From positions 1-39,201 of the forward strand of contig JAOZQW010000001.1 in assembly GCA_029932015.1 (NCBI GenBank): a DNA stretch of 39,201 nt. Reading direction: 5' to 3'. Below, one piece after another: positions 10,661-30,937 of the stretch. The DNA comes from Candidatus Fermentibacteraceae bacterium (lineage in GTDB: Bacteria > Fermentibacterota > Fermentibacteria > Fermentibacterales > JCC-6). Under the pieces are notes generated by a model, which was not told where the DNA came from, made no database searches, and was given only the letters and a program-made list of their open reading frames with translations. The stretch's first letter is position 1; each line of letters starts with the position of its first letter. The position numbers were made by a program, and so were the translations under genes.

Positions 10661-10668
10661 CCCCCCTC

Positions 10669-11130
10669 TCAGTAGAGTCCGAGTTCTTCAGCATTAAACT
10701 GAATACTGTATATCTCTTCAAACCTCATTGATCCGAAAAGATCGACCATTGCCTGCATCGGGACTCGCGAGTCGATGTTCAGCACAACAACGTCCAGACG
10801 CTTGTTCTGTTCGCGCCAGAACCTGTCGCTCAGAATGGACAGCTGCTCAGCGATCTGGGAGAGGGGCATATCGTAGTCCCCTATCCTTGCGACCAGCTCG
10901 CTGCTGTCATTGCCAGGCTCAACCTGCTTGACCCATACGGTGACCGTCAGGTACTGCTTGCCGAGCTCATTCATCACTTCGTGATGTGCCTGGGGGAAGC
11001 GGACCCGAAGGCCACCATCCTCCTTGAACAATGTAGTCGCCATGAAGAAAACCAGGAGCAGGAAAACGATGTCGGCCATCGTTCCCGTGAAGATATTTCC
11101 AGTAACCTTCATTCTTCTCTTGAATTTCAT
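10669..11130 (-). CDS. exbD: ExbD/TolR biopolymer transport protein
   Basis: 153 aa with N-terminal TM MADIVFLLLVFFMATTLF and typical ExbD length. ATGA overlap with the upstream gene. Confidence 0.8.
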   Translation of the reverse strand: MKFKRRMKVTGNIFTGTMADIVFLLLVFFMATTLFKEDGGLRVRFPQAHHEVMNELGKQYLTVTVWVKQVEPGNDSSELVARIGDYDMPLSQIAEQLSILSDRFWREQNKRLDVVVLNIDSRVPMQAMVDLFGSMRFEEIYSIQFNAEELGLY

Positions 11131-11879: not shown

Positions 11880-11897
11880 CCGTGCTCCTTCTTACCA

Positions 11898-12737
11898 TTA
11901 CAGCTGCTTGAGGTGCTCCATGTCCGACAGCTTATCCACGAGGAAAATGCTGGCTTCTTCCATATCGATCACGAATCGTCCGATCTTGGCGATGAAGTAG
12001 TTATGGGCCATCTGGATCGGAATCGCGATTGTAAGACCAGTCGCAGTTGTGATGAGGGCTTCCTGGATACCACCGGCGACGAGGCTGGCCTCGACGTTCT
12101 TCGCAGCGGCAATCTCACCGAAAGCCTTGATCATTCCAGAAACCGTACCAAGGAATCCAAGCATCGGTGCGATGCTCGAGACCGAAGCAAGTACAACGAT
12201 ACCCTTCTCGAGGAAGGCCATTTCAATACCGCCTGCGCTCTCGACAGCCTTCTCGACGGCTTCAAGTCCCTTGTCGTGTCGGACAAGTCCGGCATGCATT
12301 ATCGATGCAACAGGTCCACTTGTCCTGGCGCAGAGATCCTCAGCGCCTTTGATATCGCCCTTACGGATGAAGCCACCGACCTTCTCGAGGAAGGAGTTGA
12401 CATCAATCCGGAGTTTGCCGTAGGTGATAAACCTCTCTACAGCAACAGCGATTCCGATAAGAAGCGAGAGAAGGAGCGGATACATGAAGGGTCCGCCTGC
12501 AAGGAAGAGGTCCTTGAGGTCCATGCTGGCGCTCTCCGCGCGCTCTACTTCCTCACCTACTGGAGCATCGGCCACGGGCTCCTGTACAACAGGTTCCTCG
12601 ATAACCGGCTCTTCAACTACAGGCTCCTCGATGACCTCGGTCACCTCTTCAATTGGAGCCTCTTCTGTTCCGGGTTCCTCTGGCTGTGCCCACGCTATGG
12701 CTGTGAGCACGAGGAACAGCAGCAGGAATTTACGCAT
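11898..12737 (-). CDS. exbB: MotA/TolQ/ExbB proton-channel protein with signal peptide and acidic repeat extension
   Basis: C-terminal SIAPMLGFLGTVSGMIKAF...GGIQEALITTATGLTIAIP is the MotA/ExbB signature. N-terminus has a signal peptide plus EEPV(V/I) repeats. Confidence 0.85.
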   Translation of the reverse strand: MRKFLLLFLVLTAIAWAQPEEPGTEEAPIEEVTEVIEEPVVEEPVIEEPVVQEPVADAPVGEEVERAESASMDLKDLFLAGGPFMYPLLLSLLIGIAVAVERFITYGKLRIDVNSFLEKVGGFIRKGDIKGAEDLCARTSGPVASIMHAGLVRHDKGLEAVEKAVESAGGIEMAFLEKGIVVLASVSSIAPMLGFLGTVSGMIKAFGEIAAAKNVEASLVAGGIQEALITTATGLTIAIPIQMAHNYFIAKIGRFVIDMEEASIFLVDKLSDMEHLKQL

Positions 12738-12773
12738 CTAGTTCTCTCCTTATGTCATTCCAGTCAAGTGCCA

Positions 12774-12797
12774 TGGGACCGGCAGAAGCCGGTCCCA
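12774..12797 (-). other. Intercistronic hairpin between TBDR-1 and exbB
   Basis: TGGGACCGGC-agaa-GCCGGTCCCA, 10-bp perfect stem. No clear U-tract follows on the minus strand. Confidence 0.5.
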
Positions 12798-12818
12798 CGG
12801 ACAGTTGTTCTTCTCAGG

Positions 12819-15593: not shown

Positions 15594-16164
15594 CGCAGTA
15601 GCTCCCTTCCATTTCGCGACCTCCCAGTCGCGGTTGAAACAAGACCTCGACTCCGCGAAGAAGCATGCTGCACACCCCCTTCTACACTCCTCCAGGAGTC
15701 ATACAATTCGTTGCGTTGCAAAGTGTTAGAGAAATCTGAAACTGATTCTGAGAGTATACCTCCCCTGCTCGTATTTGTTGATTCGACTTGAGCATACGCC
15801 CCGTTGAAACCGGAGTCAAGACAACCAGATCCAGCTATTGAAAAGGGGGCATGGCAATCCCGCAGCAGCCATCTATATCGTGCTTCTTGTATAGGATTGC
15901 AGTGAGCTAAGTGAGCTTCGCATGGAGGTGCCCTTCCACCACCAAATTCGGTAGTGGATACGCTATCCCCATACTTTCCGGGAAGAGACGGCATTTCCGT
16001 CCTCCATCCTTCCTCCCGTATGTAAAACCAGAAGTAAGGCAGACAGTTCCCTAGAATTGTTCTCGGAATTGCCTTCAATGACTGCATCAAGTGCTTTCGA
16101 ATGAAGTAGTTGCAACAGGGAGAAGGGATTAGAGTGGCAGATCAGCACATTGCATCCTTCCCGA
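15594..16164 (-). promoter_or_regulatory. Long (570 nt) non-coding spacer / 5' leader between the two TBDR paralogs
   Basis: Only implausible ORFs. Mutually exclusive helices lie just upstream of the SD: 15615-15632 CGCGAC/GTCGCG versus 15628-15633 with 15653-15658. Direct repeat AGTGAGCT-A-AGTGAGCT at 15901-15917. Confidence 0.4.
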
Positions 16165-19011
16165 TCACCATTCGAGCCCGAGTCCGAAGGATATCGTTCG
16201 AGGTCTGCTGAAGGCGTACATGTTGTTCAGGGGGCCAGTGGGATCATGACCTGCCCCACCGCACTCATCCATTCCCATATCTGCATCGTACCACTCTACA
16301 TCGGCAATGAAGTCGACATTGTGACTGTTGAACAGGTTATCCACCTCGCACCAGGCATTCAGGGTCATGTCCCCGAGCCAGAAGGCTCTGCTTACTTTGA
16401 GGTCAGCTATCAACGTAGAGGGGTATCGCTCTCCGTTGATGACAGGCCGGGCGGTTCCCTGATTAGTCTGGCTGTAGGGGAATCCGCTGCCGTAGCGGCA
16501 TGACAGATGAGTATCGAGGCCCTCAAAAACGGGGACACCCGCTATCCGCAATCCCCTGCCTCTGGGCACCCTGTGGTTGAGTTCGATACTGACGGTATGC
16601 CGCTGGTCCCAGTCCAGATAGTGCTCACGGATCAGTGGTTCCCAACCCTCAGTTACCGTACGGTACCCCAGCAGAACGTTGGAGCTGCTTCCTTTTGCGA
16701 CTGAGTATGTGTAGCCGATGCTGCCGGAAAGGAAGGAATCAGCATACTTTCGGAGCAGGACATCGAACCCGGATGCATCTGCATAGTCGAGGTTGTCGTA
16801 TATGAAGAAGTCAGGCTCAGATCCACCGGATGAGTAAACCGGCCTTGTGTCAACAAGACCTGACATATCGCGGTAGAATGCAGTGATGTCGAAGTATGCA
16901 TCATTACCAAGCTCATGCCGCAGTCCCGCTTCATATGCGACCGTCACTTCGTGGGAAAGATCGGGATCACCAAGAACTGGTATCTCCCCGGGTTTGCTCG
17001 ACGGCTGTCCTCCGCCGTACATCAGATCGAGCCTTTGATGCCGACTGTAATGACAATACGAAACGTGCAATACACCCTGCTCACTCAGAATGTACGACAC
17101 TCCAAGTCTGGGGTTTAGCCTGAACTTGGGTGAACCGGTCAGAGAGTCAGCCAGGGTTGGTGGATAATCCGGCCCCGGATCGACCGGGCCGGATGGAGGG
17201 TCGATATCCTGATTCGGATCGAAGTAATCGAGCCGGGCGCCGATGTCCAGAACAACACCGTCCAGCCACATTCTGTCCCGCAGGTATAATGCCCCGGAGT
17301 TGGGAAATGCATGGTACCTGTTGAAATGTGCCGCACCTGCTGAGGGTACATCCACGCTGTAATGGAATACGTCAAAATACTTGAGCTCAATACCGGCCTT
17401 GAGCTGGTTCCTTCTGCTGATCATTGTAGTCAGATCGGTCCTGAGAGTTGATACAATACTCTCGGTCTCGCTCCAGGCATGCCGGCTGGTTCCAGCTCTA
17501 TAGAATCCCTCTTCATCCACTGAGCGCTGCGGATCGTAAGCCTGCCATTGCTCCTCTCCCCAGCCTTCCCCAAGCCACTCGGTATCGTACGGACCTTGGG
17601 GATCGTTCCGTATCCTGCGGTCGAAGGAGGTTCGATAGCTGTTGAGAGCAACATCGATATAAGTGACATCACTCAGTGTCTGCATGAAATTCAGCCCAAT
17701 GGCGGAATTCTCCCAGCTCCTGGTAGGAAGACCGTAGAGGATGTCCCGTCCCCAGGCCAGGGTGTCCCCATAGGCTGGCGAGAGGGAGTCGGTGTCGATG
17801 TAAGGCTCCTCGTACCTGCTCCAGTTCCAGAAGTCTCCGATACCGAACCAGCCTTCAGTCCTGTCCATTTTGAAATAGGTCAGACTGAACATTGTTCCAG
17901 AATAGGGTCTATATGTCAGCTTCACATTACCAGTGTACGAAGTGAGCCATTCATCGAAGCCGTAGCCGTACCTTCCATCCTCACCTCCCCCGGTCTGTCG
18001 GAATCCGCCTGACGCAAATACTCGAACATCACCGGGAATGTCTATGCCAATGGCCGGAAGGAGGTAATTCGCAATGGGCTCCGGTCCTCCAATGGAGACC
18101 TCGGCATTGAATCTGGCGTCCGAGAAGGGGCTCACATTGCTCCATCTCCAGCCGCTGTCAGGAGATGCTGGATCAAAGCCTCCCCAGTGAGAGTCGCTGG
18201 CAAGACCGAGGGCCTGCCAGTCATTTCCACCAATGTTTATCGAACCATGATATGAAGACCTGCCCTCTGGAGTAATGATATTGACTGCATCGGATTGAGC
18301 ACTACCGTACAATGTGTCAAATCCGTCACGGTGGAGCGAGATCCTGCTGATTGCGGACATCGGGATGTCGCTGCTGAAGAAACCGGTAGTCGGATCTGTA
18401 TGTTCAACACCATCGACTGTATATACAGCCTCCCCGGCTCTACTTCCCCGGAAATGGAGAGTGCTTCCAATTGCTGAAGCATCCCGCACACCCAGCCACT
18501 CAGTATATGGACTGTCGTGTCCGACCTCACCCCAGCGCTCACCGCAGTTGGTGACGCTCACCGTCCCTGCGATGAAGTCCTGAATACCGGCAACGGGCAG
18601 TGGGGTTATGTCTTCTGGACTCGAAACAATTACTGCATTGTCATTAATTAAAGTACTGCCTGAGACAACGATGCGAGTATCGCAGGCGACTTCCTCTTTG
18701 AGAAAGAAGTCAACTGACACAGTATCCCCCGCGAGTACATGTACAACAGGGGATGTTTCGGCTTCAAAACAGATCATAGCAGCCTGAAGTTCATATACGC
18801 CCTTGGGGAGGTTGATTATTATGTACTCACCATTGGCATCAGTCATTGCGCCGTACGAAGTCCCAATGACCATCACGGTAGCAGTGAACCGAGGTTCACC
18901 AGACTCATCCCATACATGCCCGACAATGGTGCCTGTATCGCCTGCGACTGCAATCGAGGTGGCCGACAGCAGAGTCATCAGTACGATTCCCGTTACGGCT
19001 CTGACACCCAT
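16165..19011 (-). CDS. TonB-dependent receptor with carboxypeptidase-regulatory-like domain (paralog 2)
   Basis: Collinear with paralog 1 over its whole length and ends GLGLEW. Preferred start is ATG 19011 (MGVRAVTGIVLMTLLSATSIAVA), 8 nt after GAAGGGA. ATG 19020 and TTG 19035 are alternatives. Confidence 0.85.
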   Translation of the reverse strand: MGVRAVTGIVLMTLLSATSIAVAGDTGTIVGHVWDESGEPRFTATVMVIGTSYGAMTDANGEYIIINLPKGVYELQAAMICFEAETSPVVHVLAGDTVSVDFFLKEEVACDTRIVVSGSTLINDNAVIVSSPEDITPLPVAGIQDFIAGTVSVTNCGERWGEVGHDSPYTEWLGVRDASAIGSTLHFRGSRAGEAVYTVDGVEHTDPTTGFFSSDIPMSAISRISLHRDGFDTLYGSAQSDAVNIITPEGRSSYHGSINIGGNDWQALGLASDSHWGGFDPASPDSGWRWSNVSPFSDARFNAEVSIGGPEPIANYLLPAIGIDIPGDVRVFASGGFRQTGGGEDGRYGYGFDEWLTSYTGNVKLTYRPYSGTMFSLTYFKMDRTEGWFGIGDFWNWSRYEEPYIDTDSLSPAYGDTLAWGRDILYGLPTRSWENSAIGLNFMQTLSDVTYIDVALNSYRTSFDRRIRNDPQGPYDTEWLGEGWGEEQWQAYDPQRSVDEEGFYRAGTSRHAWSETESIVSTLRTDLTTMISRRNQLKAGIELKYFDVFHYSVDVPSAGAAHFNRYHAFPNSGALYLRDRMWLDGVVLDIGARLDYFDPNQDIDPPSGPVDPGPDYPPTLADSLTGSPKFRLNPRLGVSYILSEQGVLHVSYCHYSRHQRLDLMYGGGQPSSKPGEIPVLGDPDLSHEVTVAYEAGLRHELGNDAYFDITAFYRDMSGLVDTRPVYSSGGSEPDFFIYDNLDYADASGFDVLLRKYADSFLSGSIGYTYSVAKGSSSNVLLGYRTVTEGWEPLIREHYLDWDQRHTVSIELNHRVPRGRGLRIAGVPVFEGLDTHLSCRYGSGFPYSQTNQGTARPVINGERYPSTLIADLKVSRAFWLGDMTLNAWCEVDNLFNSHNVDFIADVEWYDADMGMDECGGAGHDPTGPLNNMYAFSRPRTISFGLGLEW

Positions 19012-19058
19012 TTCAGCCATCCCTTCGGTCAGCAATTCAATTGATATAGATAATTGAG

Positions 19059-19099: not shown

Positions 19100-19124
19100 A
19101 AAATGGTGGGTGGCACCATTTAAT
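19100..19124. repeat. REP-like palindromic motif, copy 2 (AAAATGGTGGGTGGCACCATTTAAT)
   Basis: Same orientation and same 17-nt core as 439-455. AATGGTG-ggtgg-CACCATT forms a 7-bp stem. It sits between the upstream terminator and the candidate -35. Confidence 0.6.
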
Positions 19125-19213: not shown

Positions 19214-19873
19214 CTAGGCCCCTCCTCCTATCCCAAGTATCCTCGGGATGGTGGGGAGCCACTCGAACATGAGGAACTGAGACTGCCCGATAAGCAGACT
19301 GAGTCTGGCCATTATCGTGTATCCGAAGCTGGCACCGAAGGCTACCATCAGTATGGTGATGCCAAGGTTTGCGGTACCTCCGATAATCCCCGTATGCTCC
19401 TTCGAGAAGAAGAAGTAAACGAGACCGGATACGACACCGACCACCAGCACGAGGCTGCTGAACATCTCAAAAGCACTGCCAGCCGAGATGGAGATGATAC
19501 TTCCCTCCACCTGTGCAAGTGCATTCGTCTGGAAGACGCTGACCATGCCGAGTCCGGCACCAGCGCCGACGATCATGCCCAGGGCGAGCCTGGACAGTCC
19601 TGCGATCTTCGGGACTATCCTGGCCAGCATGAAGAAGGCGAAGATGCCAGGTATGACCCACACTATCTGGAAGCCGCCCTCCGCCGGGAACATGCGCTGC
19701 CACCAGTTGGGCTTGAGCACGTTCTCGATCGTGTAGATGACCCAGTAGCCTGCACTCATTCCTACGAAGAGGTGCTCGGCGAACTTGTAGAAGGGGTTAT
19801 CGCGGTACAGGAAACTGTAGAGCGAGAGCGATAGAAGAGCCCCTATCCATATACCCAGTATCTCCCAGTTCAT
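19214..19873 (-). CDS. Polytopic integral membrane protein, unknown function (membrane module gene 4)
   Basis: 219 aa with about 6 hydrophobic helices and no recognisable family motif. ATGA overlap with the upstream gene. Confidence 0.7.
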   Translation of the reverse strand: MNWEILGIWIGALLSLSLYSFLYRDNPFYKFAEHLFVGMSAGYWVIYTIENVLKPNWWQRMFPAEGGFQIVWVIPGIFAFFMLARIVPKIAGLSRLALGMIVGAGAGLGMVSVFQTNALAQVEGSIISISAGSAFEMFSSLVLVVGVVSGLVYFFFSKEHTGIIGGTANLGITILMVAFGASFGYTIMARLSLLIGQSQFLMFEWLPTIPRILGIGGGA

Positions 19874-20733
19874 TTCACACCTCCTTTCCGCTTCTTCTCA
19901 GCAAAATAGGCAACGTTACCCATCACTATCAGGAGCATTATCACCAGGTGCGCCACTGACTGCGGGGCCATTCCCGCAACAGCTCTTCCGCCCTCTGCCC
20001 CGACAGCGTCAGGGTGCTCGCGGACGAGAGTCTCGTAATCCGCTGCGCCCTTGAGGCCTCCGAGGAGGCCGACCAGCTGTCCCGTCCCGAGATAGGGATA
20101 GAACTGCGGGGCGCTGACAGCGGTACAGCCACCTCCGATAGGCACTCCGAATCGATCCCCAGCCATCATTATCCATGCGGGGATACCGGGGTCACCGGCG
20201 GAGAGCGAGAGGACCATATCGAAATCCTGCAGAGTGGAGTAAGCAGCAAGCATGGGGATCTCACTCCATGGCACATTGTCCTTGTCGGTGGGAAACACCG
20301 CCTGAATACCTGAACCGAGACGGACTATCATCACACCGCCGCCGGTCTTGTATCCGAGCATACACCAGTCCTCGTACTGGACCTTGCCGAGACTGTCTCC
20401 GACCGAGGACATGGCGTCCTGCCCGAGACTCGCCCCCATAGGCCACAGAGCCATTCCAACAACCTTGACGTCGTTCCTGAAGAGGTGCTGGAGCATTGCC
20501 ATTGCCATCGGCTGCAGCTCAGGCATCGTCGAAGGATCGTAGTCGAAACTCAGGAGAACGCTCGAACCAGCGGGGAGGGCTTCGACGTAGTCGAAAAGCG
20601 CTCTGCTGGGCTCGGCACCCACGGGATTCGGAAAAATCAGCCCGAGTGCCAGTGGGATGATCACGGAGAGGGCAATGAGAATGAAGATTATTCTCCTGTC
20701 CAGGTTGCCCATCTTCTCTATCATGCCGGCCAT
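19870..20733 (-). CDS. Bitopic membrane protein (N- and C-terminal TM helices flanking a ~220-aa soluble domain), unknown function (module gene 3)
   Basis: TM helices RIIFILIALSVIIPLALGLIF and VAHLVIMLLIVMGNVAYFA. The start overlaps the stop of the upstream gene (TGATG). Confidence 0.7.
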   Translation of the reverse strand: MAGMIEKMGNLDRRIIFILIALSVIIPLALGLIFPNPVGAEPSRALFDYVEALPAGSSVLLSFDYDPSTMPELQPMAMAMLQHLFRNDVKVVGMALWPMGASLGQDAMSSVGDSLGKVQYEDWCMLGYKTGGGVMIVRLGSGIQAVFPTDKDNVPWSEIPMLAAYSTLQDFDMVLSLSAGDPGIPAWIMMAGDRFGVPIGGGCTAVSAPQFYPYLGTGQLVGLLGGLKGAADYETLVREHPDAVGAEGGRAVAGMAPQSVAHLVIMLLIVMGNVAYFAEKKRKGGVK

Positions 20734-21356
20734 CAGTCCGTACCTCCAAGATAACTCCGCTCGATCCCGAAGATCATGCGGAGGGAGGTGGCGACCACGC
20801 CCATGGCGGCCCCGATCATCACCGCTCGCTGTCCAGCGGTGTTGGGAACGCTCATCAGCCAGACCTTGGCCAGAGGGATCTTATCCCAGATCATGGCGCC
20901 TATCGGCACCTGACCGAGCATGACGATGAAGGCCGAGGTGAGAAGCAGCGTCGCACGCCAGTTGGATGCCCTGAAGGCCCTGAAGGCGGCGGATGCCACG
21001 AAGAAGGCCAGCAGACTGAACATGGTGGCACCCATCGGAACTACAGCACTCTGGAACAGGTAGTCGAAAGGCATACCTTCGACCACTCCGTAGATGATGC
21101 CCGTGACGAGCATCATCAGGAAACCGATTATGGTGACCGGGCTGTATTTCCAGTTCTTCAGCTTGAGACGGATCTTCCTGAAGTGTACGTGGAGCAGATT
21201 CATCGCCCCGAGGAAGATTGCGGCCGAAGCCACTATCATGTACCATTCCTGCAGGTTGTCTCCGAGGAGCTTGAACGGCTCATGAGGTACAAAAAAGTTA
21301 AGCACCATTATCATGCCGGCCACGAATGTTATGGCCAGCGGTATCACTATTCTCAT
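20733..21356 (-). CDS. Polytopic integral membrane protein, unknown function (module gene 2)
   Basis: 207 aa with about 5-6 TM helices. GGAGG SD 5 nt upstream of ATG 21356. Confidence 0.7.
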   Translation of the reverse strand: MRIVIPLAITFVAGMIMVLNFFVPHEPFKLLGDNLQEWYMIVASAAIFLGAMNLLHVHFRKIRLKLKNWKYSPVTIIGFLMMLVTGIIYGVVEGMPFDYLFQSAVVPMGATMFSLLAFFVASAAFRAFRASNWRATLLLTSAFIVMLGQVPIGAMIWDKIPLAKVWLMSVPNTAGQRAVMIGAAMGVVATSLRMIFGIERSYLGGTD

Positions 21357-22649: not shown

Positions 22650-22670
22650 GCTCCCTCCCTTCGAGAGGAC

Positions 22671-22715
22671 CCTGAGAAAGCGCCCCGGGCGGTCACCCGG
22701 GGCGCAGTTCTCAGG
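22671..22715 (-). other. Strong composite hairpin in the only sizeable gap of the 12-gene array
   Basis: CCTGAGAA-a-GCGCCCCGGG-cggtca-CCCGGGGCGC-ag-TTCTCAGG, 18 paired positions. On the minus strand the inner stem is followed by TTTCT. Confidence 0.55.
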
Positions 22716-22739
22716 TCCGATCAGTTGTTACTGTCATTC

Positions 22740-23864
22740 CTACTCTTCTATCAGCTCCACGTTGGCACGCGGAACCGTTGCTTTTTCGCCGTCCTCGAAT
22801 TCGACATCGAGAACTCTGACTTTCGCTTCAGAATCAAGGACCTGCAGCTCAGCTGGGAGTGCAAGAACTTTCCCGAGTCTGCCGAAGTACGGAGCCCTGA
22901 TACATCTAATTGGTGAACCGATATCCATGGCTCCAGCCTGCTTGTCCTCTGTACTGGAGGATACGATGTCCTCTCCGACAGGGATCACAACTTCCGGCCG
23001 CATGACACCGGCCCTGATCTGTGTAGCACCGTTGACGCTGGCGAGCATTCCCTTCCTGGCTTTCAGGAGGTCGAATGTCCCGTGAGCCATCGTCATCCTG
23101 CCGAAACCCTCGGTGAGCACGAGAGTTATACCCTTCTTCTCATGGCCGGTTATGGCCACACCGAGATCATATCCGAGGAACTCCTTGAGATCCTTGTCGT
23201 CGAACCCTCCAACCACGATGGCCTTCACACCGATGTCGATGGCCTTCCTGAGCGTGGCGCTGGAAACAAAGGAGCCTCCGAGGAGAACCTTGCCCTTGCA
23301 GGTATCATCGAGAAGGTCTGCGGTGAGTTCCTGTTCAGGGGATTCAACAATGACGTCAAGCTCGCCCCTGACCTCCCCACCGATGCCGAAGATGCCCTGG
23401 ACAAAGGTTGCTCTGGATTCGACCACAACGCCCTCATTGCCGAGTACTTCTACGACCGTGCCTTTGACATATGCATCTATCTCGACCGGTATCGGCGGCT
23501 CCCTCAGGACGGCCTGACCGGTTATCTCGTTGTAGCTCTCGAAGGTTCCTTCTATAGGTGATCTGACGGAATTCTTAAAAAGACCCCACAGCCCCTTTGT
23601 CTGACCAAGAACCTCGTCCTCCGCAATGGCATCACCCGGGGATTTGATGAGGATACTCGGGATGTCACTTGGTGGAAGACCGAGAACATTGGCGATATTC
23701 AGCATCTTGACGTTGCCGGGAAGTTCTGTCCTGGCAACGACGGATTCAGCGGTGACTTCCTGCCCCTTCTCGACGAGTGTCTCACCGGTCAGGGGAAGCC
23801 GTCTCTCTTTACGGACGATGGTAACATCTGCGACCCTCAGACCGGGTGTGTATGCGAACGCCAT
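22740..23864 (-). CDS. Uncharacterised 374-aa protein: N-terminal barrel-sandwich-hybrid (lipoyl-like) fold, central Rossmann-like segment, C-terminal KOW/SH3-like segment
   Basis: Start moved to ATG 23864 (MAFAYTPGLRVADVTIV...), 1 nt after the GlmL-like stop. The track's N-terminal extension overlaps that gene and is Arg/Ser-rich junk. Fold guesses come from sequence patterns only. Confidence 0.65.
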   Translation of the reverse strand: MAFAYTPGLRVADVTIVRKERRLPLTGETLVEKGQEVTAESVVARTELPGNVKMLNIANVLGLPPSDIPSILIKSPGDAIAEDEVLGQTKGLWGLFKNSVRSPIEGTFESYNEITGQAVLREPPIPVEIDAYVKGTVVEVLGNEGVVVESRATFVQGIFGIGGEVRGELDVIVESPEQELTADLLDDTCKGKVLLGGSFVSSATLRKAIDIGVKAIVVGGFDDKDLKEFLGYDLGVAITGHEKKGITLVLTEGFGRMTMAHGTFDLLKARKGMLASVNGATQIRAGVMRPEVVIPVGEDIVSSSTEDKQAGAMDIGSPIRCIRAPYFGRLGKVLALPAELQVLDSEAKVRVLDVEFEDGEKATVPRANVELIEE

Positions 23865-23865
23865 A

Positions 23866-25743
23866 CTACTCTTCCCCCCCCATGCTGAGGAAACGCTCAG
23901 GATATGTGTCCAGGGCCTTCGACCACTCCTGGAGCTTGGCCACACGGGTGGCCTCGTCCTCAGGAAGCTCGAACGGCCGACGGCCACGTCCATCGAGTAT
24001 CAGGCCAACTACCCCCCCCTCAAGCTCACCAGCCCACATCTCACCTAAACCGGCTCCTGCATCGATGTGCTTGGCGGGGACTATCTCCGCCTGCACCTTC
24101 TCACCTACTCCCAGAGGGATGAGCTCTATACGGTCGATCTCGATGGGGTGCTCCTCCAGCGAACCATCTGACCTGGTCATCTTCAGAGTCGCCAGAACTT
24201 TCGCCTTCTTTGCCGGACCGGTCGGGGCAACACATGTCCCGAGCTTGATCAGACAGTCCTTGTCGAATACTTCGGTAGCAGCTTTGGGATGCACTTCGGA
24301 GAGTACTCCGAGCTGCGGCATCATGAATATCGAGTCCACCGCTAGCATTGTGATACCCTCAGGAAGGAAAGCATCGATCAGCATGTGTGCGGCCTGGCAT
24401 CTTCTTGGAGCATGCGACAGGACCCCTCCTGAGCCGATCAGAAGATTCAGTCCCATCATGTCCACCAGAGTACCGCCGGACTGAGTCTGCTCGAATGCAT
24501 CTCCGATGGTCCGCTCCTGAGCCACTCCCTTGAGACCTGTCGCCAGTTCCCTGTGCTGGATAAGCGCCAGTCTCAGCGCTTCTCTTGCTATTGCCTGCTC
24601 TATTATGAGCTCCTCCAGCAACTGCGGTATCGTGGTAGGCCGTATCATCTTGTTCCTGATACGGTTCCTCAGATCGGCTTCATCCATCATGAACGGGACC
24701 CAGCGCATGACATTGTCGAGCCCTGCGCTGGCAAGAACGTTTGAAACGCTGTAGCTCATACCGAGATTGGCTGAGACCGTCCTGTTGAAAACGGGAGCAC
24801 CTTCACTGGTGAAAACGCTGAACACGTCAGTGGTAGCCCCACCGATATCAACGCCCATCACTTCGATCTCCTCGTTCTTCGCCACGGACTCTATGAGTTT
24901 ACCAACAGCTCCGGGAGTGGGCATGATGGGAAGCTGTTTCCACTCACCTTCAACAAAATGACCGGCCCAACTCATCAATCTTGCGTAGCCCGGAGCCTGC
25001 GCCATCACGTGCTCCATGAACAGCTCGTGTATCTCATCTCTGGCCGGTCCGAGGTTCTCCCTCTCCAGCACAGGTCTGAGGTTGTCAACGACCTTGAGTT
25101 CCATGGAGTCAGACAGCTCACCTGCCACAGCATCCGTTGCATCCTTGTTGCCTGCATAGATGACCGGCAGCTTGTAGCCTACCCCGAACCGGGGCTTTGG
25201 ATCAGCGGCCCTGACCACCTCGGCCAGTTCAATAACATGGTCGATCGTTCCACCGTCGATGCCGCCGGAAAGAAGGATCATATCCGGCCTGAGCCTTCTG
25301 ATGTCGGCGACCTTCTCGTGGGGAAGCCTTCCATCGTTTGAGGCCACGACGTCCATTACAATAGCTCCTGCCCCGAGCGCGGCCCTCTGGGCGCTCTCTC
25401 CCGTCATGGACTTCACGACACCTGCAACGGTCATCTGAAGTCCTCCTCCGGCGGATGAGGTCGACATGTATATGTCAACGCCTTTGTCTCCGTCGGCCGA
25501 GACGTTCACGCCATCCTTGGCATCATTAAGCAGTTCAATACCTTCGAGATCCTCGATCTCTCCTACTGCGTTCAGCACACCCTTGGTTACATCCTCAGCC
25601 GGAGCCTCGACCGTGGTCGGGGCCTCTCCTCTGCGAATGAGACGGAACTCACCATCCCGCTTCTCGATGAGAATGGCCTTGGTGGTGGTGCTGCCGCAGT
25701 CAGTCGCCAGTATCCTGGTGATCTCCTTGCTGGCCACCGCCAT
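23866..25743 (-). CDS. GlmL/MutL-like ASKHA-superfamily ATPase (glutamate-mutase-accessory-like), 625 aa
   Basis: N-terminal ILATDCGSTTTKAILI (phosphate-1) and MGVDIGGATTDVFSV (phosphate-2) motifs typical of the GlmL/EutA-type ASKHA family. It is about 150 aa longer than classical GlmL. AAGGAGG SD. Confidence 0.7.
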   Translation of the reverse strand: MAVASKEITRILATDCGSTTTKAILIEKRDGEFRLIRRGEAPTTVEAPAEDVTKGVLNAVGEIEDLEGIELLNDAKDGVNVSADGDKGVDIYMSTSSAGGGLQMTVAGVVKSMTGESAQRAALGAGAIVMDVVASNDGRLPHEKVADIRRLRPDMILLSGGIDGGTIDHVIELAEVVRAADPKPRFGVGYKLPVIYAGNKDATDAVAGELSDSMELKVVDNLRPVLERENLGPARDEIHELFMEHVMAQAPGYARLMSWAGHFVEGEWKQLPIMPTPGAVGKLIESVAKNEEIEVMGVDIGGATTDVFSVFTSEGAPVFNRTVSANLGMSYSVSNVLASAGLDNVMRWVPFMMDEADLRNRIRNKMIRPTTIPQLLEELIIEQAIAREALRLALIQHRELATGLKGVAQERTIGDAFEQTQSGGTLVDMMGLNLLIGSGGVLSHAPRRCQAAHMLIDAFLPEGITMLAVDSIFMMPQLGVLSEVHPKAATEVFDKDCLIKLGTCVAPTGPAKKAKVLATLKMTRSDGSLEEHPIEIDRIELIPLGVGEKVQAEIVPAKHIDAGAGLGEMWAGELEGGVVGLILDGRGRRPFELPEDEATRVAKLQEWSKALDTYPERFLSMGGEE

Positions 25744-26167
25744 CTACCTCCTTCTTATTGACTGAGCCTCTGCCCCTGAAAAGGCGGCTCCACAGGGAAC
25801 CCCTCTCCTTCCGCAATGCCTTACGGGATGCCTTCTGCTCCCGTTTGAGTGTTGCGTCACGGGCATTTTCCTCTTCTATGGCCAGGGTGAGTTTTTCGAT
25901 GTTCTCCCTGTCCTCTATCATTCGTACAAATCTGTAGTACTCACCGGAGCTGACAACCAGTGAAACCACCGGATTGGCAAATATCAGAAGCTGGTTACCG
26001 AGAAATGATAACGGTTTTATCGATTCCAGGAAAATGATGGCAGGTACAGTAAGCTGTCTCTGCACAATGCCTTTAGCCAGCTTATCAATAAGCGATGTGA
26101 AGTCCTCTGTACCGTCGACATCGGTCAGGCTACTGATCCCCGGCGGTATGTGCCCTGATGTATCCAA
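25700..26167 (-). CDS. Small (about 155 aa) membrane-associated protein, unknown function
   Basis: Hydrophobic core LTVPAIIFLESIKPLSFLGNQLLIFANPVVSLVV and a basic C-terminal tail. No ATG is available after the upstream stop. I propose the TTG start at 26167 behind GAGAGGAAG. It overlaps the neighbouring genes by 38 and 44 nt. Confidence 0.5.
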   Translation of the reverse strand: MDTSGHIPPGISSLTDVDGTEDFTSLIDKLAKGIVQRQLTVPAIIFLESIKPLSFLGNQLLIFANPVVSLVVSSGEYYRFVRMIEDRENIEKLTLAIEEENARDATLKREQKASRKALRKERGSLWSRLFRGRGSVNKKEVDGGGQQGDHQDTGD

Positions 26168-26609
26168 GGACTTCCTCTCTGTTGCCGGAGAACTGCACTG
26201 ACAGCCCTCTGAACTTTGCCAGCCTTGTTGGCTGAGGGAATGGACTGAGAAGGACTCCGTACCTGTCAGGCACAATACTCCTGACCTGCTTCCATGTCTT
26301 GCGTTCAACGCCGAAGACTGATTTCTTGCTCACACCTTCAGCATCCATTCTGAACCGGCATGGCATGAAGTAGCTCCACATCGAGAGCAGAAGAAGCAGG
26401 ATCCCGATGAGCCCCCACCAGGCATTTTCACCGGTAAGGGCAGCTACCGTTCCGGCCAGCAATATCATGAAGACCAGAAGCAGTGTCGCAAGCGGTCTCT
26501 CTCTGGCCGGATGGGAAACCCACTCCAGGAGTTGAATTCCGGACCCTTCGGTCCCGCTAAGCTCTGCTGCTCTCTCCTCAGTCAGCTTACTCCTCCACCC
26601 TCGGTTCAA
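26130..26609 (-). CDS. Two-TM membrane protein with bacterial PH (bPH/YdbS-like) domain, tentative
   Basis: Two TM helices (LATLLLVFMILLAGTVAAL and WGLIGILLLLLSMWSYF), then a domain of about 80 aa (FRMDAEGVSKKSVFGVERKTWKQVRSIV...). The start is uncertain: TTG at 26609, with no ATG before the first TM helix. Confidence 0.5.
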   Translation of the reverse strand: MNRGWRSKLTEERAAELSGTEGSGIQLLEWVSHPARERPLATLLLVFMILLAGTVAALTGENAWWGLIGILLLLLSMWSYFMPCRFRMDAEGVSKKSVFGVERKTWKQVRSIVPDRYGVLLSPFPQPTRLAKFRGLSVQFSGNREEVLGYIRAHTAGDQ

Positions 26610-28035
26610 CTATGCAGAGTTCCTTGACCGCTGCCACCTCGTCGAGCCTGAGTACGGGTGTATTGACGGGCGCATCGGTCACAAGGTGCGGCTTCTCTTC
26701 AACCTCACGGGCTATTGATTCCATTGCTGCGATGAAGCTGTCCAGGTCCTCGATGCCCTCCGTCTCGGTAGGCTCGATCATCATCGCTTCATGGACGATG
26801 AGCGGAAAGTAGATCGTTGGCGCGTGGAAGCCGTAATCAAGGAGTCTCTTGGCAATATCAAGGGTTTTTACACCCTTCTCAAGCTGCCTGTCTCCCGAGA
26901 GTACGAATTCGTGCATACACGGACCGTCATCAAAGGGCAGTTCAAAGATCCCCTTCAGCTTCTCCTTGAGATAATTGGCGTTGATCAGAGCGTTCTCGGT
27001 GACTTCGCACAGGCCATCAGCACCGAGCGTCCTGATATAGGCATATGCCCTGTACAGAACTCCCACGTTCCCGTGGAACGCAAGCAGCCGTCCAAAGGAT
27101 CGATCAGGTTTTTGAAGGAAGTACCTGCCATCGGAGTCCTTCGAAACGATAGAGTCCGGCAGGTACCTCTCGAGGTCGGAGATGCAGGCGACCGGTCCGG
27201 AACCGGGACCTCCTCCTCCGTGCGGTGTACCGAATGTCTTGTGTAAATTCAGATGACAGACATCGAAGCCCATATCACCAGGTCTGGCTACTCCAAGAAG
27301 GGCATTCATATTGGCGCCGTCCATGTAGTTGAGACCTCCGGCCTCATGTACGATGGAGGTCAGCTCACCTATTTTTGACTCAAACAGGCCAAGGGTGTTC
27401 GGATTGGTCAGCATGAAAGCAGCAGTGTTGGGGCCGACCTTTCGCCTGAGATCCTCCGGGTCAACCTCTCCCCGGTCGTTTGAGCTGACACCGATAACCT
27501 TGCATCCGGCGAGCGTGGAGGTCGCTGGATTCGTACCATGTGCCGAATCCGGCATCAAAACCTCATTGCGATGTCCCTCTCCCCGGTCCCTGTGGTAGCT
27601 TGTTATGAGCATAAGGCCACAGAACTCGCCCTGCGCACCTGCCGCCGGCTGGAGCGTAATAGCTTCGAAGCCGGTTATCTCGCAGAGGTACCCGGAGAGC
27701 CTGTGCATGAGTTCCAGGGTTCCCTGTGCCATCGCATCGGGAGAGAGCGGATGAAGCCCGGCAAGCCCGGGCATCCTGGCTATATCCTCGTTCTGTCTGG
27801 GATTGTACTTCATCGTACATGAACCAAGAGGGTACATTCCCTTATCAACATGATAATTGGCATTGCTCAGCTCGATGAAGTGCCTCATCACCTGGCCCTC
27901 TGTAACTTCGGGAAGACCGATACTACCGGACTCCCTCTCCAGACCCTCGGGCAGCTCTGCGGACGGTGGTACATCCAGAGCAGGGAGCGAAACGCCCATT
28001 CTGCCACTGCTGCTCATGCTGAATACGGTCTTCAT
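26587..28035 (-). CDS. gcvPB: Glycine dehydrogenase (aminomethyl-transferring) subunit 2
   Basis: 482 aa with the PLP-lysine motif CHLNLHKTFGTPHGGGGPG. ATGA overlap with gcvPA. Confidence 0.95.
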   Translation of the reverse strand: MKTVFSMSSSGRMGVSLPALDVPPSAELPEGLERESGSIGLPEVTEGQVMRHFIELSNANYHVDKGMYPLGSCTMKYNPRQNEDIARMPGLAGLHPLSPDAMAQGTLELMHRLSGYLCEITGFEAITLQPAAGAQGEFCGLMLITSYHRDRGEGHRNEVLMPDSAHGTNPATSTLAGCKVIGVSSNDRGEVDPEDLRRKVGPNTAAFMLTNPNTLGLFESKIGELTSIVHEAGGLNYMDGANMNALLGVARPGDMGFDVCHLNLHKTFGTPHGGGGPGSGPVACISDLERYLPDSIVSKDSDGRYFLQKPDRSFGRLLAFHGNVGVLYRAYAYIRTLGADGLCEVTENALINANYLKEKLKGIFELPFDDGPCMHEFVLSGDRQLEKGVKTLDIAKRLLDYGFHAPTIYFPLIVHEAMMIEPTETEGIEDLDSFIAAMESIAREVEEKPHLVTDAPVNTPVLRLDEVAAVKELCIVEPRVEE

Positions 28036-29387
28036 CGGGACACCTCCACGTCGCAGATGGATGCGACCGCGTTAATGTAGGCGTCCATCTCCTCTTTTGT
28101 CCGCTTCTCTGTCGCAGTTATGAGCATAACGCCCTCTCCCAGCTCCTGAAGCGGGAGCCCTGCAAGAATGGACATTTCTGCGAGCTTCTGCAGGATTTCA
28201 ACTGAAGAGACGGGGAAGCGGAGAGTGAATTCCCTGAAGAACGGTGTGTTTCCGAACACAGGCTCGACACCTTCTATTCCAATCAGACCGGAATAGAGGT
28301 AATGACTCTTCTGGAAACACTGGGTGGATATCTCCCTGAAGCCCTGCTCACCCGTAAGAGAGAGATACACAGCATTGGCGAGAGCCATCAGTGCCTGGTT
28401 GGTGCAGATGTTGCTGGTCGCCTTCTCTCTTCTGATGTGCTGCTCCCTGGTCTGAAGTGTCAGGACATATCCCGTCTCACCGGCTCGGTCCACAGTACGC
28501 CCGATGATCCTTCCGGGCATCTTGCGGGCATACTTGAGTTTCGAGGACATGAATCCCGCAAAGGGGCCGCCATACGAGAGGGGAAGCCCCATGCTCTGAC
28601 CCTCGCCTACAACTATGTCCGCACCAGCATCTCCAGGTGAACGCAAGAGTGGAAGAGCAACAGGATCTGCTGCTGCTATCAGAAGCCCACCTGCTGAATG
28701 TATGAGTTCAGCCATTGGTTCAATATCCTGTATGAGGCCGAAATAATCTGGGTACTGGACGAGAAGTGCTGCTGCACCACCCTCGGTCAGAGAGGATGCT
28801 GCATCAAGGTCCAGAAGTCCGTTTTCCAGGAAAGGGATCTCGTTGATCTCGAACCCCTCACGATCGAGGTATGTCCTGATGACCCGAGCCCATCGCGGAT
28901 TCATAGAACCAGCAATAAGTATCCTGTTCTTCCTCGTAACACGGAGAGCCATCAGGCAGGCTTCAGCTGCGGCAGTCGCACCATCGTAGACCGAGGCGTT
29001 GGCCATCTCCATGCCTGTCAGGCGACTGATCATTGTCTGGTACTCGAATATCGCGTGGAGGGTTCCCTGACTGACTTCGGCCTGGTACGGGGTGTAGGCA
29101 GTGAAGAACTCGCTCCGGAGAAGAATGTGATCGATGGCTGAGGGTACGAAATGATCATAGGCTCCGCCGCCGAGGAAGCAGATATGGTCCGCGCCGGTAT
29201 CGCGGGAAGTAATGACTGCCATATCACGTTGCAGCTCAAGCTCGGAGAGCGCGGGAGGGAGAGATAGTTCACCCTTGAGCATGTACTCATCCGGTATAGG
29301 TTTCAGGAGATCCTCAAAGGAATCCACACCGATCTCGTCGAGCATTCGACGACGATGCTCTTCCCGGTTAGGGATGTACCTGCTCAT
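28032..29387 (-). CDS. gcvPA: Glycine dehydrogenase (aminomethyl-transferring) subunit 1
   Basis: 451 aa with TAYTPYQAEVSQGTLHAIFEYQTMI, the conserved P-protein alpha-subunit motif. Starts 2 nt after the gcvH stop. Confidence 0.95.
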   Translation of the reverse strand: MSRYIPNREEHRRRMLDEIGVDSFEDLLKPIPDEYMLKGELSLPPALSELELQRDMAVITSRDTGADHICFLGGGAYDHFVPSAIDHILLRSEFFTAYTPYQAEVSQGTLHAIFEYQTMISRLTGMEMANASVYDGATAAAEACLMALRVTRKNRILIAGSMNPRWARVIRTYLDREGFEINEIPFLENGLLDLDAASSLTEGGAAALLVQYPDYFGLIQDIEPMAELIHSAGGLLIAAADPVALPLLRSPGDAGADIVVGEGQSMGLPLSYGGPFAGFMSSKLKYARKMPGRIIGRTVDRAGETGYVLTLQTREQHIRREKATSNICTNQALMALANAVYLSLTGEQGFREISTQCFQKSHYLYSGLIGIEGVEPVFGNTPFFREFTLRFPVSSVEILQKLAEMSILAGLPLQELGEGVMLITATEKRTKEEMDAYINAVASICDVEVSR

Positions 29388-29389
29388 TC

Positions 29390-29773
29390 TTACTCACCGA
29401 TGAAGGTTGCGTACTCGGCAGCTGTCTTGAGCTTGTCAAAACCGGAGGAGTCATCGGTGGAGACGACTATCAGCCAGCCTTTACCGTAGGCATCCTCGTT
29501 GATAAGCGCAGGTTCATCCTCGAGAGTCTCGTTCACTCTGACTATTTTGCCGTCGAATGGAGCGTAGAAGTCCTCTGCGGTTTTTACAGCTTCTAAAGAT
29601 CCAAAGACGTCACCGGCCGCGAATTCCTCGAGAGCCGGGAATTCAACCATTACTATCTCACCCATCTGATCCTGGGCGTAGTCAGTGAGTCCCATCATGT
29701 ACTCTCCGCCGCCAAGGCTCTTCACCCATTCATGGGTCTCAGTGTAATGAAGCTCCTCAGGTATGCTCGCCAT
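29390..29773 (-). CDS. gcvH: Glycine cleavage system H protein
   Basis: YTETHEWVK...GSLEAVKTAEDFYAPFDG contains the lipoyl-lysine motif. Start moved to ATG 29773 behind GGGAGGAA. Confidence 0.9.
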   Translation of the reverse strand: MASIPEELHYTETHEWVKSLGGGEYMMGLTDYAQDQMGEIVMVEFPALEEFAAGDVFGSLEAVKTAEDFYAPFDGKIVRVNETLEDEPALINEDAYGKGWLIVVSTDDSSGFDKLKTAAEYATFIGE

Positions 29774-29839
29774 GCTGTTTCCTCCCATGTGATATCAGTG
29801 ACTGACAGTTGTGACACCCTGCAAGGGTGTCATGGTTTA

Positions 29840-30937
29840 TTACTTTCGGCTTCCATCCTTGTAGAAAGGCAGCTTGACCGTACTGACCGGCACTCGCCGA
29901 CCTCTGACCTCGGCCTCGAGATCAGTTCCCGATTTATGGAAACCTCTCTCCACAATTGCGAGACAGACACCATGACCGAGTGCAGGAGCCAGGGAACCGC
30001 TGGTGACAATACCAACCTTGCGGTCGCCATCGTACAGCTCGGCGCCGTGGCGCGGGAAGCCTTTACCTGTGACCTTGAGGCCGACGATGTACCTTGCCGG
30101 TTTATCCCTCTTCTGACGGCTCATGACCTCACGGCCTATGAAATCCTTATCAGTCTTCAGCTTGACGACCCAGCCGAGTTTTGCCTCTATTGGTGTCGTG
30201 GTGTGGTCGATATCGCTGCCATAGAGTACATAGCCGACCTCGAGCCGGAGCGTATCTCTTGCACCGAGACCAACCGGTTTTATACCGAATTCGTCTCCAG
30301 CTTCCATGACCGCTGCCCAGACATCCGGGGCATCTTCCGATTTTATGTAGATCTCGAAACCGTCCTCACCCGTATAGCCGGTTCTGGCTATCAGTGCTAT
30401 CTTGCCGGCAAATGTACCCATCACATGGGCGTAGTAGTCAATCTCATCCAGATCTGCATCTGTGAGCTTCGCAGCTACTTTCTGGGCATCGGGACCCTGT
30501 ATGGCCACCAGAGCGGTTTCATCGCTCTCATTGGTCAACTCGATGCTGTACCCTGCAGTATGGCTGTTCACCCACGCCCAGTCCTTCTCGATATTCGAGG
30601 CGTTGACAACCATGAGGTACTCATTCGTGCCGATGTGGTAGACGATCAGATCATCGACTATCCCGCCATCAGGATAACACATGGTGGAGTAGAAGGCTTT
30701 ACCGGGAGGAACGTCCGAGTCGTTCGTCAGAATGAAGTCCAGGAAGCGGCCGGCGTCGGGGCCCTTGACCCTGAATTCACCCATATGGGAGAGGTCGAAT
30801 ACACCGACATTATTCCGTACAGCATTGTGCTCCTCCTTTACGGAGGAGTACTTTATTGGCATTATGTAACCGGCAAAAGATTCCATCCTGCCGCCCAGAG
30901 CGACATGTATGTCGTGAAGCGAGGTCTTCTTGTCCAT
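29840..30937 (-). CDS. gcvT: Aminomethyltransferase (glycine cleavage T protein)
   Basis: 365 aa, MDKKTSLHDIHVALGGRMESFAGYIMPIKYSS...VGVFDLSHMGEFRVKG, a typical GcvT N-terminus. AGGAGAAGGG SD. Confidence 0.95.
   Translation of the reverse strand: MDKKTSLHDIHVALGGRMESFAGYIMPIKYSSVKEEHNAVRNNVGVFDLSHMGEFRVKGPDAGRFLDFILTNDSDVPPGKAFYSTMCYPDGGIVDDLIVYHIGTNEYLMVVNASNIEKDWAWVNSHTAGYSIELTNESDETALVAIQGPDAQKVAAKLTDADLDEIDYYAHVMGTFAGKIALIARTGYTGEDGFEIYIKSEDAPDVWAAVMEAGDEFGIKPVGLGARDTLRLEVGYVLYGSDIDHTTTPIEAKLGWVVKLKTDKDFIGREVMSRQKRDKPARYIVGLKVTGKGFPRHGAELYDGDRKVGIVTSGSLAPALGHGVCLAIVERGFHKSGTDLEAEVRGRRVPVSTVKLPFYKDGSRK

Follow-up and report, generated by a model that had tools for sequence, protein, structure and literature searches.

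A long-form ATPase of the PF13941 family, its conserved partner protein and an associated DUF6754 membrane module

The window analysed here is the whole of a 39,201-nucleotide stretch from a Candidatus Fermentibacteraceae bacterium (GenBank assembly GCA_029932015.1, contig JAOZQW010000001.1, forward-strand positions 1 to 39,201). Its minus strand encodes a 625-residue ATPase of the ASKHA type, which had been noted as an orphan relative of the glutamate mutase accessory protein GlmL, followed after a single base by a 374-residue partner protein (P374) and then by a four-gene membrane module (DUF6754-m1-m2-m3). The ATPase and P374 genes are coupled, are fused in some lineages and recur in synteny; the ATPase belongs to a subfamily separate from GlmL, and no coenzyme-B12 (hereafter B12) enzyme is encoded beside the pair. 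New here are this ASKHA subfamily, its partner and the context of the system in which they occur. As to function, the chances seem to us about evenly balanced that the pair is a cytoplasmic ATP-using unit working with, and perhaps energising, the membrane module. Some 8 million papers and preprints were searched under the family names of the ATPase and of DUF6754, and nothing on this system was found.

The long-form ATPase and its partner

The ATPase open reading frame (ORF) starts at an ATG preceded by AAGGAGG with a spacing of 4 nt. The DCGSTTTKA and DIGGATTDV motifs reported in the original prediction were present, at residues 15-23 and 299-307. The MutL/GlmL family PF13941 was matched over residues 11-497 with 410.2 bits (E 1.4e-122; gathering threshold 27 bits), covering positions 1-450 of the 450 in the profile. 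The phosphate-1 motif D15-K22 (DCGSTTTK), the phosphate-2 motif D299-D306 (DIGGATTD) and the adenosine motif GSGG (437-440) were invariant in a 16-sequence alignment. Judged by these motifs and by the ASKHA fold, the ATPase appears to be ATP-competent, and hydrolysis is predicted.

Since the PF13941 match ends at residue 497, the C-terminal extension comes to about 128-130 residues and not the roughly 150 first estimated. In the AlphaFold2 (AF2) model the extension (residues 498-625) forms a beta-rich domain of seven strands with a terminal helix, at a predicted local distance difference test score (pLDDT) mostly above 80-90, and it carries the conserved sequence GGVVGxIxDGRGRxPF. True GlmL aligned only over residues ~10-496 of the ATPase and has no counterpart of this domain.

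The ATPase scored below the cut-off of every more specific model in this family: 220.9 bits against 475 for the GlmL equivalog NF040745, 205 against 600 for Or-4 (NF040744) and 162.3 against 204.05 for the subfamily model TIGR01319. Its identity to true GlmL (tblastn) was 26-31%, with 27.8% to GlmL of P. acidaminophilum. Because it fails the GlmL, Or-4 and TIGR01319 tests, we advise against classing it among the accessory proteins of glutamate mutase. Its description as an orphan relative of GlmL held; on sequence grounds it is a distinct long-form branch of PF13941 and not GlmL, and the name 'glutamate mutase L', under which long-form homologues stand in public records, is by the same measure a misnomer.

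Long-form homologues (582-631 aa) were aligned over their full length, C-terminal domain included, with 43-70% identity across at least eight phyla. Identity to the window ATPase was 69% in Zixibacteria, 61% in a Planctomycetes metagenome-assembled genome (MAG), 58% in Armatimonadota, 47% in a cultured Clostridium and 43-50% in the most distant loci. Across phyla the ATPase was about 62-70% identical, against 52-56% for the neighbouring gcvPB.

PDB sequence and profile searches gave no match for the ATPase or for P374. The AF2 model of the ATPase (pLDDT 72) was compared with the PDB using Foldseek, and generic ASKHA folds alone were found (145 matches at E<=0.001). The best 50 of the 145 were all ASKHA-type proteins, with hydantoinase-A type proteins first, then Hsp70, Ppx/GppA and sugar kinases, the diol dehydratase reactivase at rank 23 and FtsA at rank 31; all TM-scores were at or below 0.33.

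The stop codon of the ATPase (TAG, 23868-23866) is separated from the ATG of P374 (at 23864) by the single base 23865, as had been predicted. A G-rich Shine-Dalgarno sequence, GGGGGGAAGAG, lies just 5' of this ATG. The ATPase gene was found beside the partner gene in 18 of 41 partner-centred genome loci, each flanked by 8 kb or more on either side, and 36 pair loci were collected overall. In these the ATPase was always on the same strand as the partner and usually immediately upstream; an intervening gene was seen in loci L001, L067, L082 and L091. In two independent lineages, represented by P0266 and P0318, the two proteins are fused in the same order, with fusion proteins of 995 and 1003 aa; the 995-aa fusion occurs on many separate contigs and the 1003-aa fusion in Ca. 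Ozemobacteraceae. The pairing of the ATPase with its partner is not due to chance. No shared ancestry was detected among the components of the system (paralogy, hhalign).

Two of the intervening genes could be described. In Armatimonadota (L091:9595-9975) it encodes a 23S-rRNA-intervening-sequence protein (PF05635), and in the Zixibacteria chromosome LS998015 (L001:8621-18610) a 266-aa protein. The latter pair is preceded by a gene for a DAO-type flavoprotein and followed directly 3' by a Tol-Pal-like cluster (ExbB/TolQ, ExbD/TolR, TonB_2, PD40 TolB-like, OmpA/Pal and YfiO/CpoB-like).

P374 has more than 8000 homologues, which form 2536 clusters at 50% identity. Its identity between phyla was 55-61%, and 33-36% in the distant loci L085, L087, L088 and L093. 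The claim that it belongs to no recognised family stood: no match was found in Pfam, NCBIfam, PHROG, PADLOC or PDB sequences. The AF2 model (pLDDT 81) has three parts, of which the first is all-beta over residues 11-171; it is followed by a central alpha/beta domain and a C-terminal barrel (Table 1). The N-terminal region carries the deeply conserved QGxFGxGGExxG (156-167), the central domain has TGxE, TEGFG and GxTQxRAGxxRPE loops at least 95% conserved over 105 representatives, and the C-terminus ends in a conserved PRxNxE. E164, E242, T251, E252, T281, Q282, R284, R289 and E291 are near-invariant polar residues. Two of the conserved central-domain loops had a pLDDT below 50 in the monomer model; conservation together with low confidence suggests that they become ordered in a complex, with a partner or a ligand.

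A barrel-sandwich and KOW-like architecture had been proposed for P374; at the level of fold the KOW-like part was borne out and the barrel-sandwich part is probable. The window protein itself had no Pfam match, but longer relatives (~450 aa) passed the RnfC_N, NqrA_N and Biotin_lipoyl_2 thresholds (P0315, RnfC_N 34.2 bits; P0345, NqrA_N 33 and Biotin_lipoyl_2 32.7; P0313, 34.3). The C-terminal ~60 residues superposed on Spt5 KOW5 chains with TM-scores of 0.84-0.85, a root-mean-square deviation of 1.3-1.4 A and a Foldseek probability of 1.00. In the PDB search this KOW-like end alone was matched, with no match for the whole protein; the KOW Pfam family gave a weak match in one relative. On the strength of the model, the C-terminal part is a KOW/Tudor-like SH3 barrel by fold, and nucleic-acid binding is not implied.

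Two further assignments of P374 were tried and rejected. It is not a lipoyl or biotinyl carrier (PF00364), since the hairpin has no conserved lysine; K90 is Lys in 45 of 106 representatives and K97 in 35 of 106. As a B12-binding domain (PF02310) it has neither the DxHxxG...SxL...GG motif nor a Pfam match; in place of His241 of the TGHE stretch, close homologues have T, S or N, and only TGxE is kept. A search of 72,556 plasmid records for P374 or DUF6754 gave no match.

The membrane module, locus layout and gene neighbourhoods

The genes of the minus strand are read in the order gcvT, gcvH, gcvPA, gcvPB, s1, s2, ATPase, partner, a 90-nt gap, DUF6754, m1, m2 and m3 (Table 1). The DUF6754, m1, m2 and m3 genes have overlapping or near-touching ends, and the terminator-like hairpin 3' of m3 likely marks the end of the transcription unit, to judge from its pattern.

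Table 1. Positions in the window of the genes, domains and structural elements discussed.
Feature	Position	Strand	Basis
gcvT-gcvH-gcvPA-gcvPB, tightly packed, upstream of s1	26587..30937	-	Similarity to Pfam-annotated L002 genes
s1, small protein with two transmembrane segments and a ~70-aa C-terminal domain, usually just 5' of s2	26130..26609	-	
s2, small conserved protein, start position uncertain	25700..26308	-	
Long-form PF13941 (MutL/GlmL-like) ASKHA ATPase, 625 aa	23866..25743	-	ORF and PF13941
ATPase, ASKHA core, residues 11-497	24253..25713	-	Pfam span
ATPase, family-specific C-terminal beta-rich domain and terminal helix, residues 498-625	23869..24252	-	AF2
Partner P374, 374 aa, cytoplasmic	22740..23864	-	ORF; no family name
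P374, N-terminal all-beta region, probably of barrel-sandwich-hybrid type, residues ~1-175	23340..23864	-	AF2, Pfam matches of relatives
P374, central alpha/beta domain, residues ~185-300	22965..23312	-	AF2 beta-alpha pattern
P374, C-terminal KOW/Tudor/SH3-like beta barrel, residues ~315-374	22743..22922	-	Foldseek
GC-rich stem-loop between the P374 and DUF6754 genes	22667..22718	-	RNA fold
DUF6754 protein, 427 aa	21366..22649	-	PF20539, E 1.2e-121
m1, membrane protein with six transmembrane segments, 207 aa, always next after DUF6754	20733..21356	-	
m2, 287 aa: transmembrane segment, ~225-aa domain predicted periplasmic, transmembrane segment	19870..20733	-	
m3, membrane protein with five to six transmembrane segments, 219 aa, final gene of the module	19214..19873	-	
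Terminator-like hairpin and T-run 3' of m3	19101..19121	-	Consensus scan, pattern match only

The 3' end of s2 overlaps the start of the ATPase gene by 44 nt (25700-25743; 22 nt in L002), which suggests translational coupling. No in-frame ATG, GTG or TTG is found for s2 just 3' of the s1 stop, and its conservation is confined to about the last 135 residues, a hydrophobic hairpin followed by a charged helix. Homologues of s2 lie directly 5' of the ATPase gene or, where the pair is absent, directly 5' of DUF6754. The small proteins had no match in Pfam, NCBIfam, PHROGs or PADLOC, save a weak YcxB-like match in a single s1 member (Pfam scan).

The stem-loop in the 90-nt gap had a predicted energy of -43.9 kcal/mol (z -6.8), equalled by none of 200 shuffles. 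Stable structures were predicted in the corresponding gap of relatives L004, L015, L018 and L129, and not in all loci. The stem-loop may serve as a partial terminator or stabilise the mRNA, and in this way set how much soluble protein is made relative to membrane protein. No glycine riboswitch or other Rfam family was found anywhere in the window.

By hydropathy, the DUF6754 protein consists of a signal or transmembrane segment, an outer domain of ~145 aa, a second transmembrane segment, a conserved domain of ~200 aa and a last transmembrane segment. The ~200-aa domain, with the motifs GRATEMG, AESLxLAETG, CDYTLIGEE and AASAYLS, is the best-conserved part of the module, and the outer domain is variable. 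A basic AKRGKK stretch directly follows the second transmembrane segment, and by the positive-inside rule the ~200-aa domain is predicted to be cytoplasmic. Among the membrane proteins nothing but DUF6754 was recognised in Pfam, NCBIfam or PADLOC, and m1, m2 and m3 fell in no Pfam family (78 members scanned). Apart from the ATPase and DUF6754, whose name is itself a placeholder, no protein of the system (P374, s1, s2, m1, m2 and m3) has a family name. No defence or phage model was matched (PADLOC on the eight proteins, PHROGs on the ATPase, P374 and DUF6754).

Gene neighbourhoods were compared in the partner-centred loci and in 80 DUF6754-centred loci; the latter came from metagenome contigs without taxonomy and are biased to relatives of one query. 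All locus samples lean towards the queries used, and ORFs in related loci were called naively, by first start codon and greedy non-overlap. In the DUF6754-centred loci the order DUF6754-m1-m2-m3 was fixed wherever the contig sufficed, s1-s2 often lay directly 5' of the module, and the pair, where present, stood between s2 and DUF6754 or after m3. The module occurred with the partner in Fermentibacteria, Eisenbacteria, Zixibacteria, Latescibacterota, Ignavibacteria, UBP2 and others. The arrangement of the window, from s2 through ATPase, partner and DUF6754 to m3, was found in Fermentibacteria, Eisenbacteria, Zixibacteria, Ignavibacteria and other MAGs. In L085, L087, L088 and L093 the pair follows m3, in L024 and L067 the module likewise lies 5' of the pair, and a fused ATPase-partner gene followed by the module was also found. 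The predicted link between pair and membrane genes therefore recurs in several phyla and gene orders, and it is not obligatory in gene neighbourhoods.

Copy number varied as well. A Planctomycetes MAG (L090:8165-18506) has a single pair followed by two modules; L119 has three tandem modules with no pair within 10 kb, and tandem copies of the module were also seen in L128, L130, L136, L140, L145 and L158. On a 590-kb metagenome contig (L175:8128-21131), two diverged convergent pairs and two diverged modules lie within 13 kb, and the copies are 70% identical in the ATPase, 56% in the partner, 51% in DUF6754, 40% in m1 and 41% in m2. The whole system seems to have been duplicated long ago, with both copies retained next to each other. 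Within one comparison, conservation fell from the ATPase (55-56%) through the partner (48-53%) and DUF6754 (46-47%) to m1-m3 (28-36%). Beside lone DUF6754 modules no alternative conserved cytoplasmic partner was found.

Other neighbour families recurred in at most 7 of the 36 pair loci. The original prediction had overlooked that the gcv operon directly upstream is conserved together with the pair in some of the phyla. In 13 of the 41 partner-centred loci (Fermentibacteria, Eisenbacteria, TA06 and some other MAGs) gcvTHP is found immediately 5', in fixed order; none of the 80 DUF6754-centred loci and none of the distant loci has it. In L002 (4556-9654) the gcv genes are accompanied by a lipoate-protein ligase gene upstream of s1/s2 and the ATPase. 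We take the gcv linkage to reflect an operon layout passed on by descent, and give it no great weight as evidence of function.

The absence of B12 enzymes that had been asserted for the window was confirmed: none of its large ORFs matched a family of B12 mutases, aminomutases or lyases. None was recurrent among 130 neighbour-cluster representatives of the 36 pair loci (Pfam scan), and none occurred in 16 Pfam-annotated neighbourhoods.

The partner gene also stands alone in Hydrothermus. Around the lone partner genes of Poribacteria and WOR-3 no conserved neighbour was found (an ECF, or extracytoplasmic function, sigma factor, ABC-2 permeases, PhyH and TMEM260-like proteins were seen). In the WOR-3 loci (L016-L060, e.g. 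L021, L028, L040, L045 and L060) a 937-aa TMEM260-like protein of the O-mannosyltransferase type with tetratricopeptide repeats often precedes the lone partner. In Hydrothermus (L174:10001-13587) and in Clostridia-type loci (L086:6595-13201 and L089:10001-15897) the partner gene lies just 5' of prfA-prmC (release factor 1 and its methyltransferase), which may be a housekeeping coincidence.

Directly 3' of the module (9989-19035, minus strand) come genes for two TonB-dependent receptors of 956 and 924 aa, whose N-termini are carboxypeptidase-regulatory-like, then a 177-aa ORF and the genes for ExbB-ExbD-ExbD-TonB. Other Fermentibacteria loci keep the first receptor at this position, and some Eisenbacteria and other MAG loci contain weak matches to it (24-30%). 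Further on (531-9889, minus strand) lie envelope genes, including those for an 848-aa protein with a type IX secretion system C-terminal sorting domain, two GWxTD-domain proteins and a PorV/FadL-like outer-membrane protein, together with 345-aa and 749-aa ORFs without a Pfam match. The remaining large ORFs include an isochorismatase, a flavoprotein reductase and two ABC (ATP-binding cassette) exporters. By its best matches the contig belongs to Candidatus Fermentibacteria/Aegiribacteria.

Candidate roles of the pair

In the arrangement that we favour, ATPase and partner would be a conserved two-protein cytoplasmic unit, made by translational coupling and acting as a complex, within an eight-gene system s1-s2-ATPase-partner-DUF6754-m1-m2-m3. 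The pair would dock on the conserved, predicted cytoplasmic domain of DUF6754. An ATP cycle of the ASKHA type, relayed through the partner, would then drive, or gate, a step of transport or assembly that the four inner-membrane proteins of the module carry out; no B12 enzyme would be served. An engine or chaperone for the membrane complex, as suggested in the original prediction, is likewise a conjecture. A single pair may energise several modules whose genes lie elsewhere, and such sharing would account for the lone modules, the lone pairs, the tandem module copies and the conservation gradient. A role in uptake or transport is favoured by the multi-copy modules, by the variable outer domain of DUF6754 and by the TonB-dependent receptors and ExbBD-TonB genes found 3' in Fermentibacteria.

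Several observations weigh against this proposal. We know of no membrane transporter that is powered by an ASKHA protein. The DUF6754-m1-m2-m3 genes were present in only 15 of the 41 partner-centred loci, and 23 of the 41 had no ATPase gene within 10 kb; conversely, 13 of 15 wide DUF6754-centred loci had no pair within 10 kb. Two Clostridia-type loci have the pair amid housekeeping genes and no module within 10 kb, and the partner gene is found alone in Poribacteria and in many WOR-3 genomes. The AF2 models, built from 14-16 sequences, were of only moderate quality (pLDDT 81 for the partner and 72 for the ATPase).

Alternatively, the pair might form a soluble ATP-dependent enzyme complete in itself, for instance a kinase, carboxylase or hydrolase resembling the hydantoinase or acetone carboxylase A subunits. 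The partner would then hold the substrate site and the module would be a co-transcribed transporter of substrate or product, possibly in glycine or one-carbon metabolism. N-methylhydantoinase, acetophenone/acetone carboxylase and caprolactamase were the top Foldseek matches of the ATPase, and the near-invariant polar motifs of the partner resemble an active site; yet all these matches had TM-scores of 0.33 or less. The Hydantoinase_A and Hydant_A_N families (PF01968 and PF05378) were matched weakly and below threshold (18.1 bits against 22.9 and 19.3 against 25.2), and no HyuB-type partner was found among the neighbours. The occurrence of the pair without the module in Clostridia and Armatimonadota suits such an enzyme, as do gcvTHP upstream in 13 of the 41 loci and LplA or a DAO flavoprotein in others; the gcv linkage is, however, limited, with none in the 80 DUF6754-centred loci or the distant loci. 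Pair and module are, moreover, duplicated together. We regard an enzyme of this kind as possible but rather unlikely.

More improbable is an actin-like ASKHA protein that forms filaments, with P374 as its adaptor to a membrane complex, after the manner of MreB-MreCD, FtsA or PilM-PilNO. The ASKHA fold, a conservation unusually high and above that of gcvPB, the weak MreB-like_C match (E 0.0015), FtsA at Foldseek rank 31 and the bitopic and polytopic membrane proteins encoded alongside all point in that direction. The nearest folds, however, are enzymes and chaperones and not actins, and a locus can hold as many as three modules in tandem, a pattern that we regard as more usual for transporters than for cytoskeletal anchors.

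Least probable of all, in our estimate, is a GlmL-type reactivating chaperone for a B12 enzyme encoded elsewhere in the genome. The ATPase is a full-length PF13941 member, GlmL/MutL has been described as a reactivation chaperone of glutamate mutase (assumed by analogy with the diol dehydratase reactivase; PMC4682846), and that reactivase likewise combines an ASKHA subunit of ~600 aa (Foldseek rank 23) with a smaller one; but the ATPase falls below every GlmL-family cut-off at 26-31% identity to true GlmL, which sits between glmS and glmE, no B12-dependent mutase or lyase was found in the window or consistently adjacent across the 36 pair loci, P374 matched neither a B12-binding Pfam family nor any known enzyme subunit and does not conserve His241, published Fermentibacteria genomes are described as lacking amino-acid catabolism (PMC5030696), and the C-terminal domain and the synteny with the membrane module would be left unexplained.

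The proposal that the pair works with the membrane module can be carried further, to a form that we consider doubtful: the pair may be the energising unit of an unrecognised class of inner-membrane machine (DUF6754 with m1-m3 and s1/s2), one pair serving several paralogous modules. If so, this would be a primary transporter or envelope-assembly device run by an actin-fold ATPase and not by an ABC, P-type, AAA+ or rotary one, widespread in the FCB group and in other, mostly uncultured phyla.

The pair and the membrane genes that frequently adjoin it are conserved across at least 12 phyla, the ATPase more strongly than the neighbouring glycine-cleavage P protein, which points to an important and so far unstudied function of the cell in lineages dominant in sediments, digesters and sponges. 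For thousands of public proteins named 'glutamate mutase L' or 'GlmL-related', which would have no B12 enzyme to serve, the annotation is corrected. Should the pair power the module, the few ATPases known to drive transport or assembly at membranes would be joined by a new kind. Experiments could start directly from the fusion proteins, from the compact operons or from a cultured Clostridium that carries the pair.

Comparison with known systems

The closest named relative is GlmL/MutL (PF13941; NF040745), which shares with the ATPase the same Pfam domain end to end and the phosphate and adenosine motifs. Unlike GlmL, which is of about 460 aa and consists of the ASKHA part only, the 625-residue ATPase has ~130 extra C-terminal residues; it has no glmS or glmE neighbours, but a conserved partner and a membrane-module context. 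In Peptoclostridium, true GlmL (461 aa) is encoded in glmS-glmL-glmE-mal, beside a corrinoid adenosyltransferase gene. The Or-4 proteins (NF040744) and the ASKHA proteins of lysine/ornithine aminomutase clusters are also of the PF13941 family, and the ATPase matches Or-4 weakly (205 bits). They differ in that the ATPase has no aminomutase genes nearby; the Fusobacterium relative is of 462 aa and 27% identical.

The reactivase of diol and glycerol dehydratases, DdrAB (and EutA), resembles the pair in combining an ASKHA large subunit of ~600 aa with a smaller subunit, and its structure 2d0o is in the Foldseek list. The resemblance is at the level of fold (TM-score 0.27); no dehydratase or ammonia-lyase is encoded nearby here, and the partner is a 374-residue protein with a probable barrel-sandwich and a KOW-like domain. 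The hydantoinase-A type ATPases, oxoprolinase included, are the best structural matches of the ATPase, and differ in scores below the Pfam thresholds, in the lack of a HyuB-type partner here and in TM-scores of at most 0.33.

Like NqrA and RnfC, P374 is soluble, has an alpha/beta domain after an N-terminal region that is probably a barrel-sandwich, and is encoded with several small polytopic membrane proteins. No flavin or Fe-S motifs were seen, however, none of the membrane proteins belongs to a Pfam family of Nqr or Rnf, and no NqrA or RnfC entry was among the 50 best PDB matches of the partner listed by Foldseek. The resemblance is one of analogy and not of membership.

For the pair and module as a whole, the nearest parallels are the energy-coupling factor (ECF) transporters with EcfAA'T, shared ABC ATPases, MreB-MreCD and PilM-PilNO, and the comparison draws on general knowledge of those systems. 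They are unlike the present proteins in having no homology to them, and the likeness comes from gene-neighbourhood logic: a conserved cytoplasmic NTPase unit is encoded beside or away from one or more membrane modules, and conservation is higher in its sequence than in those of the membrane proteins.

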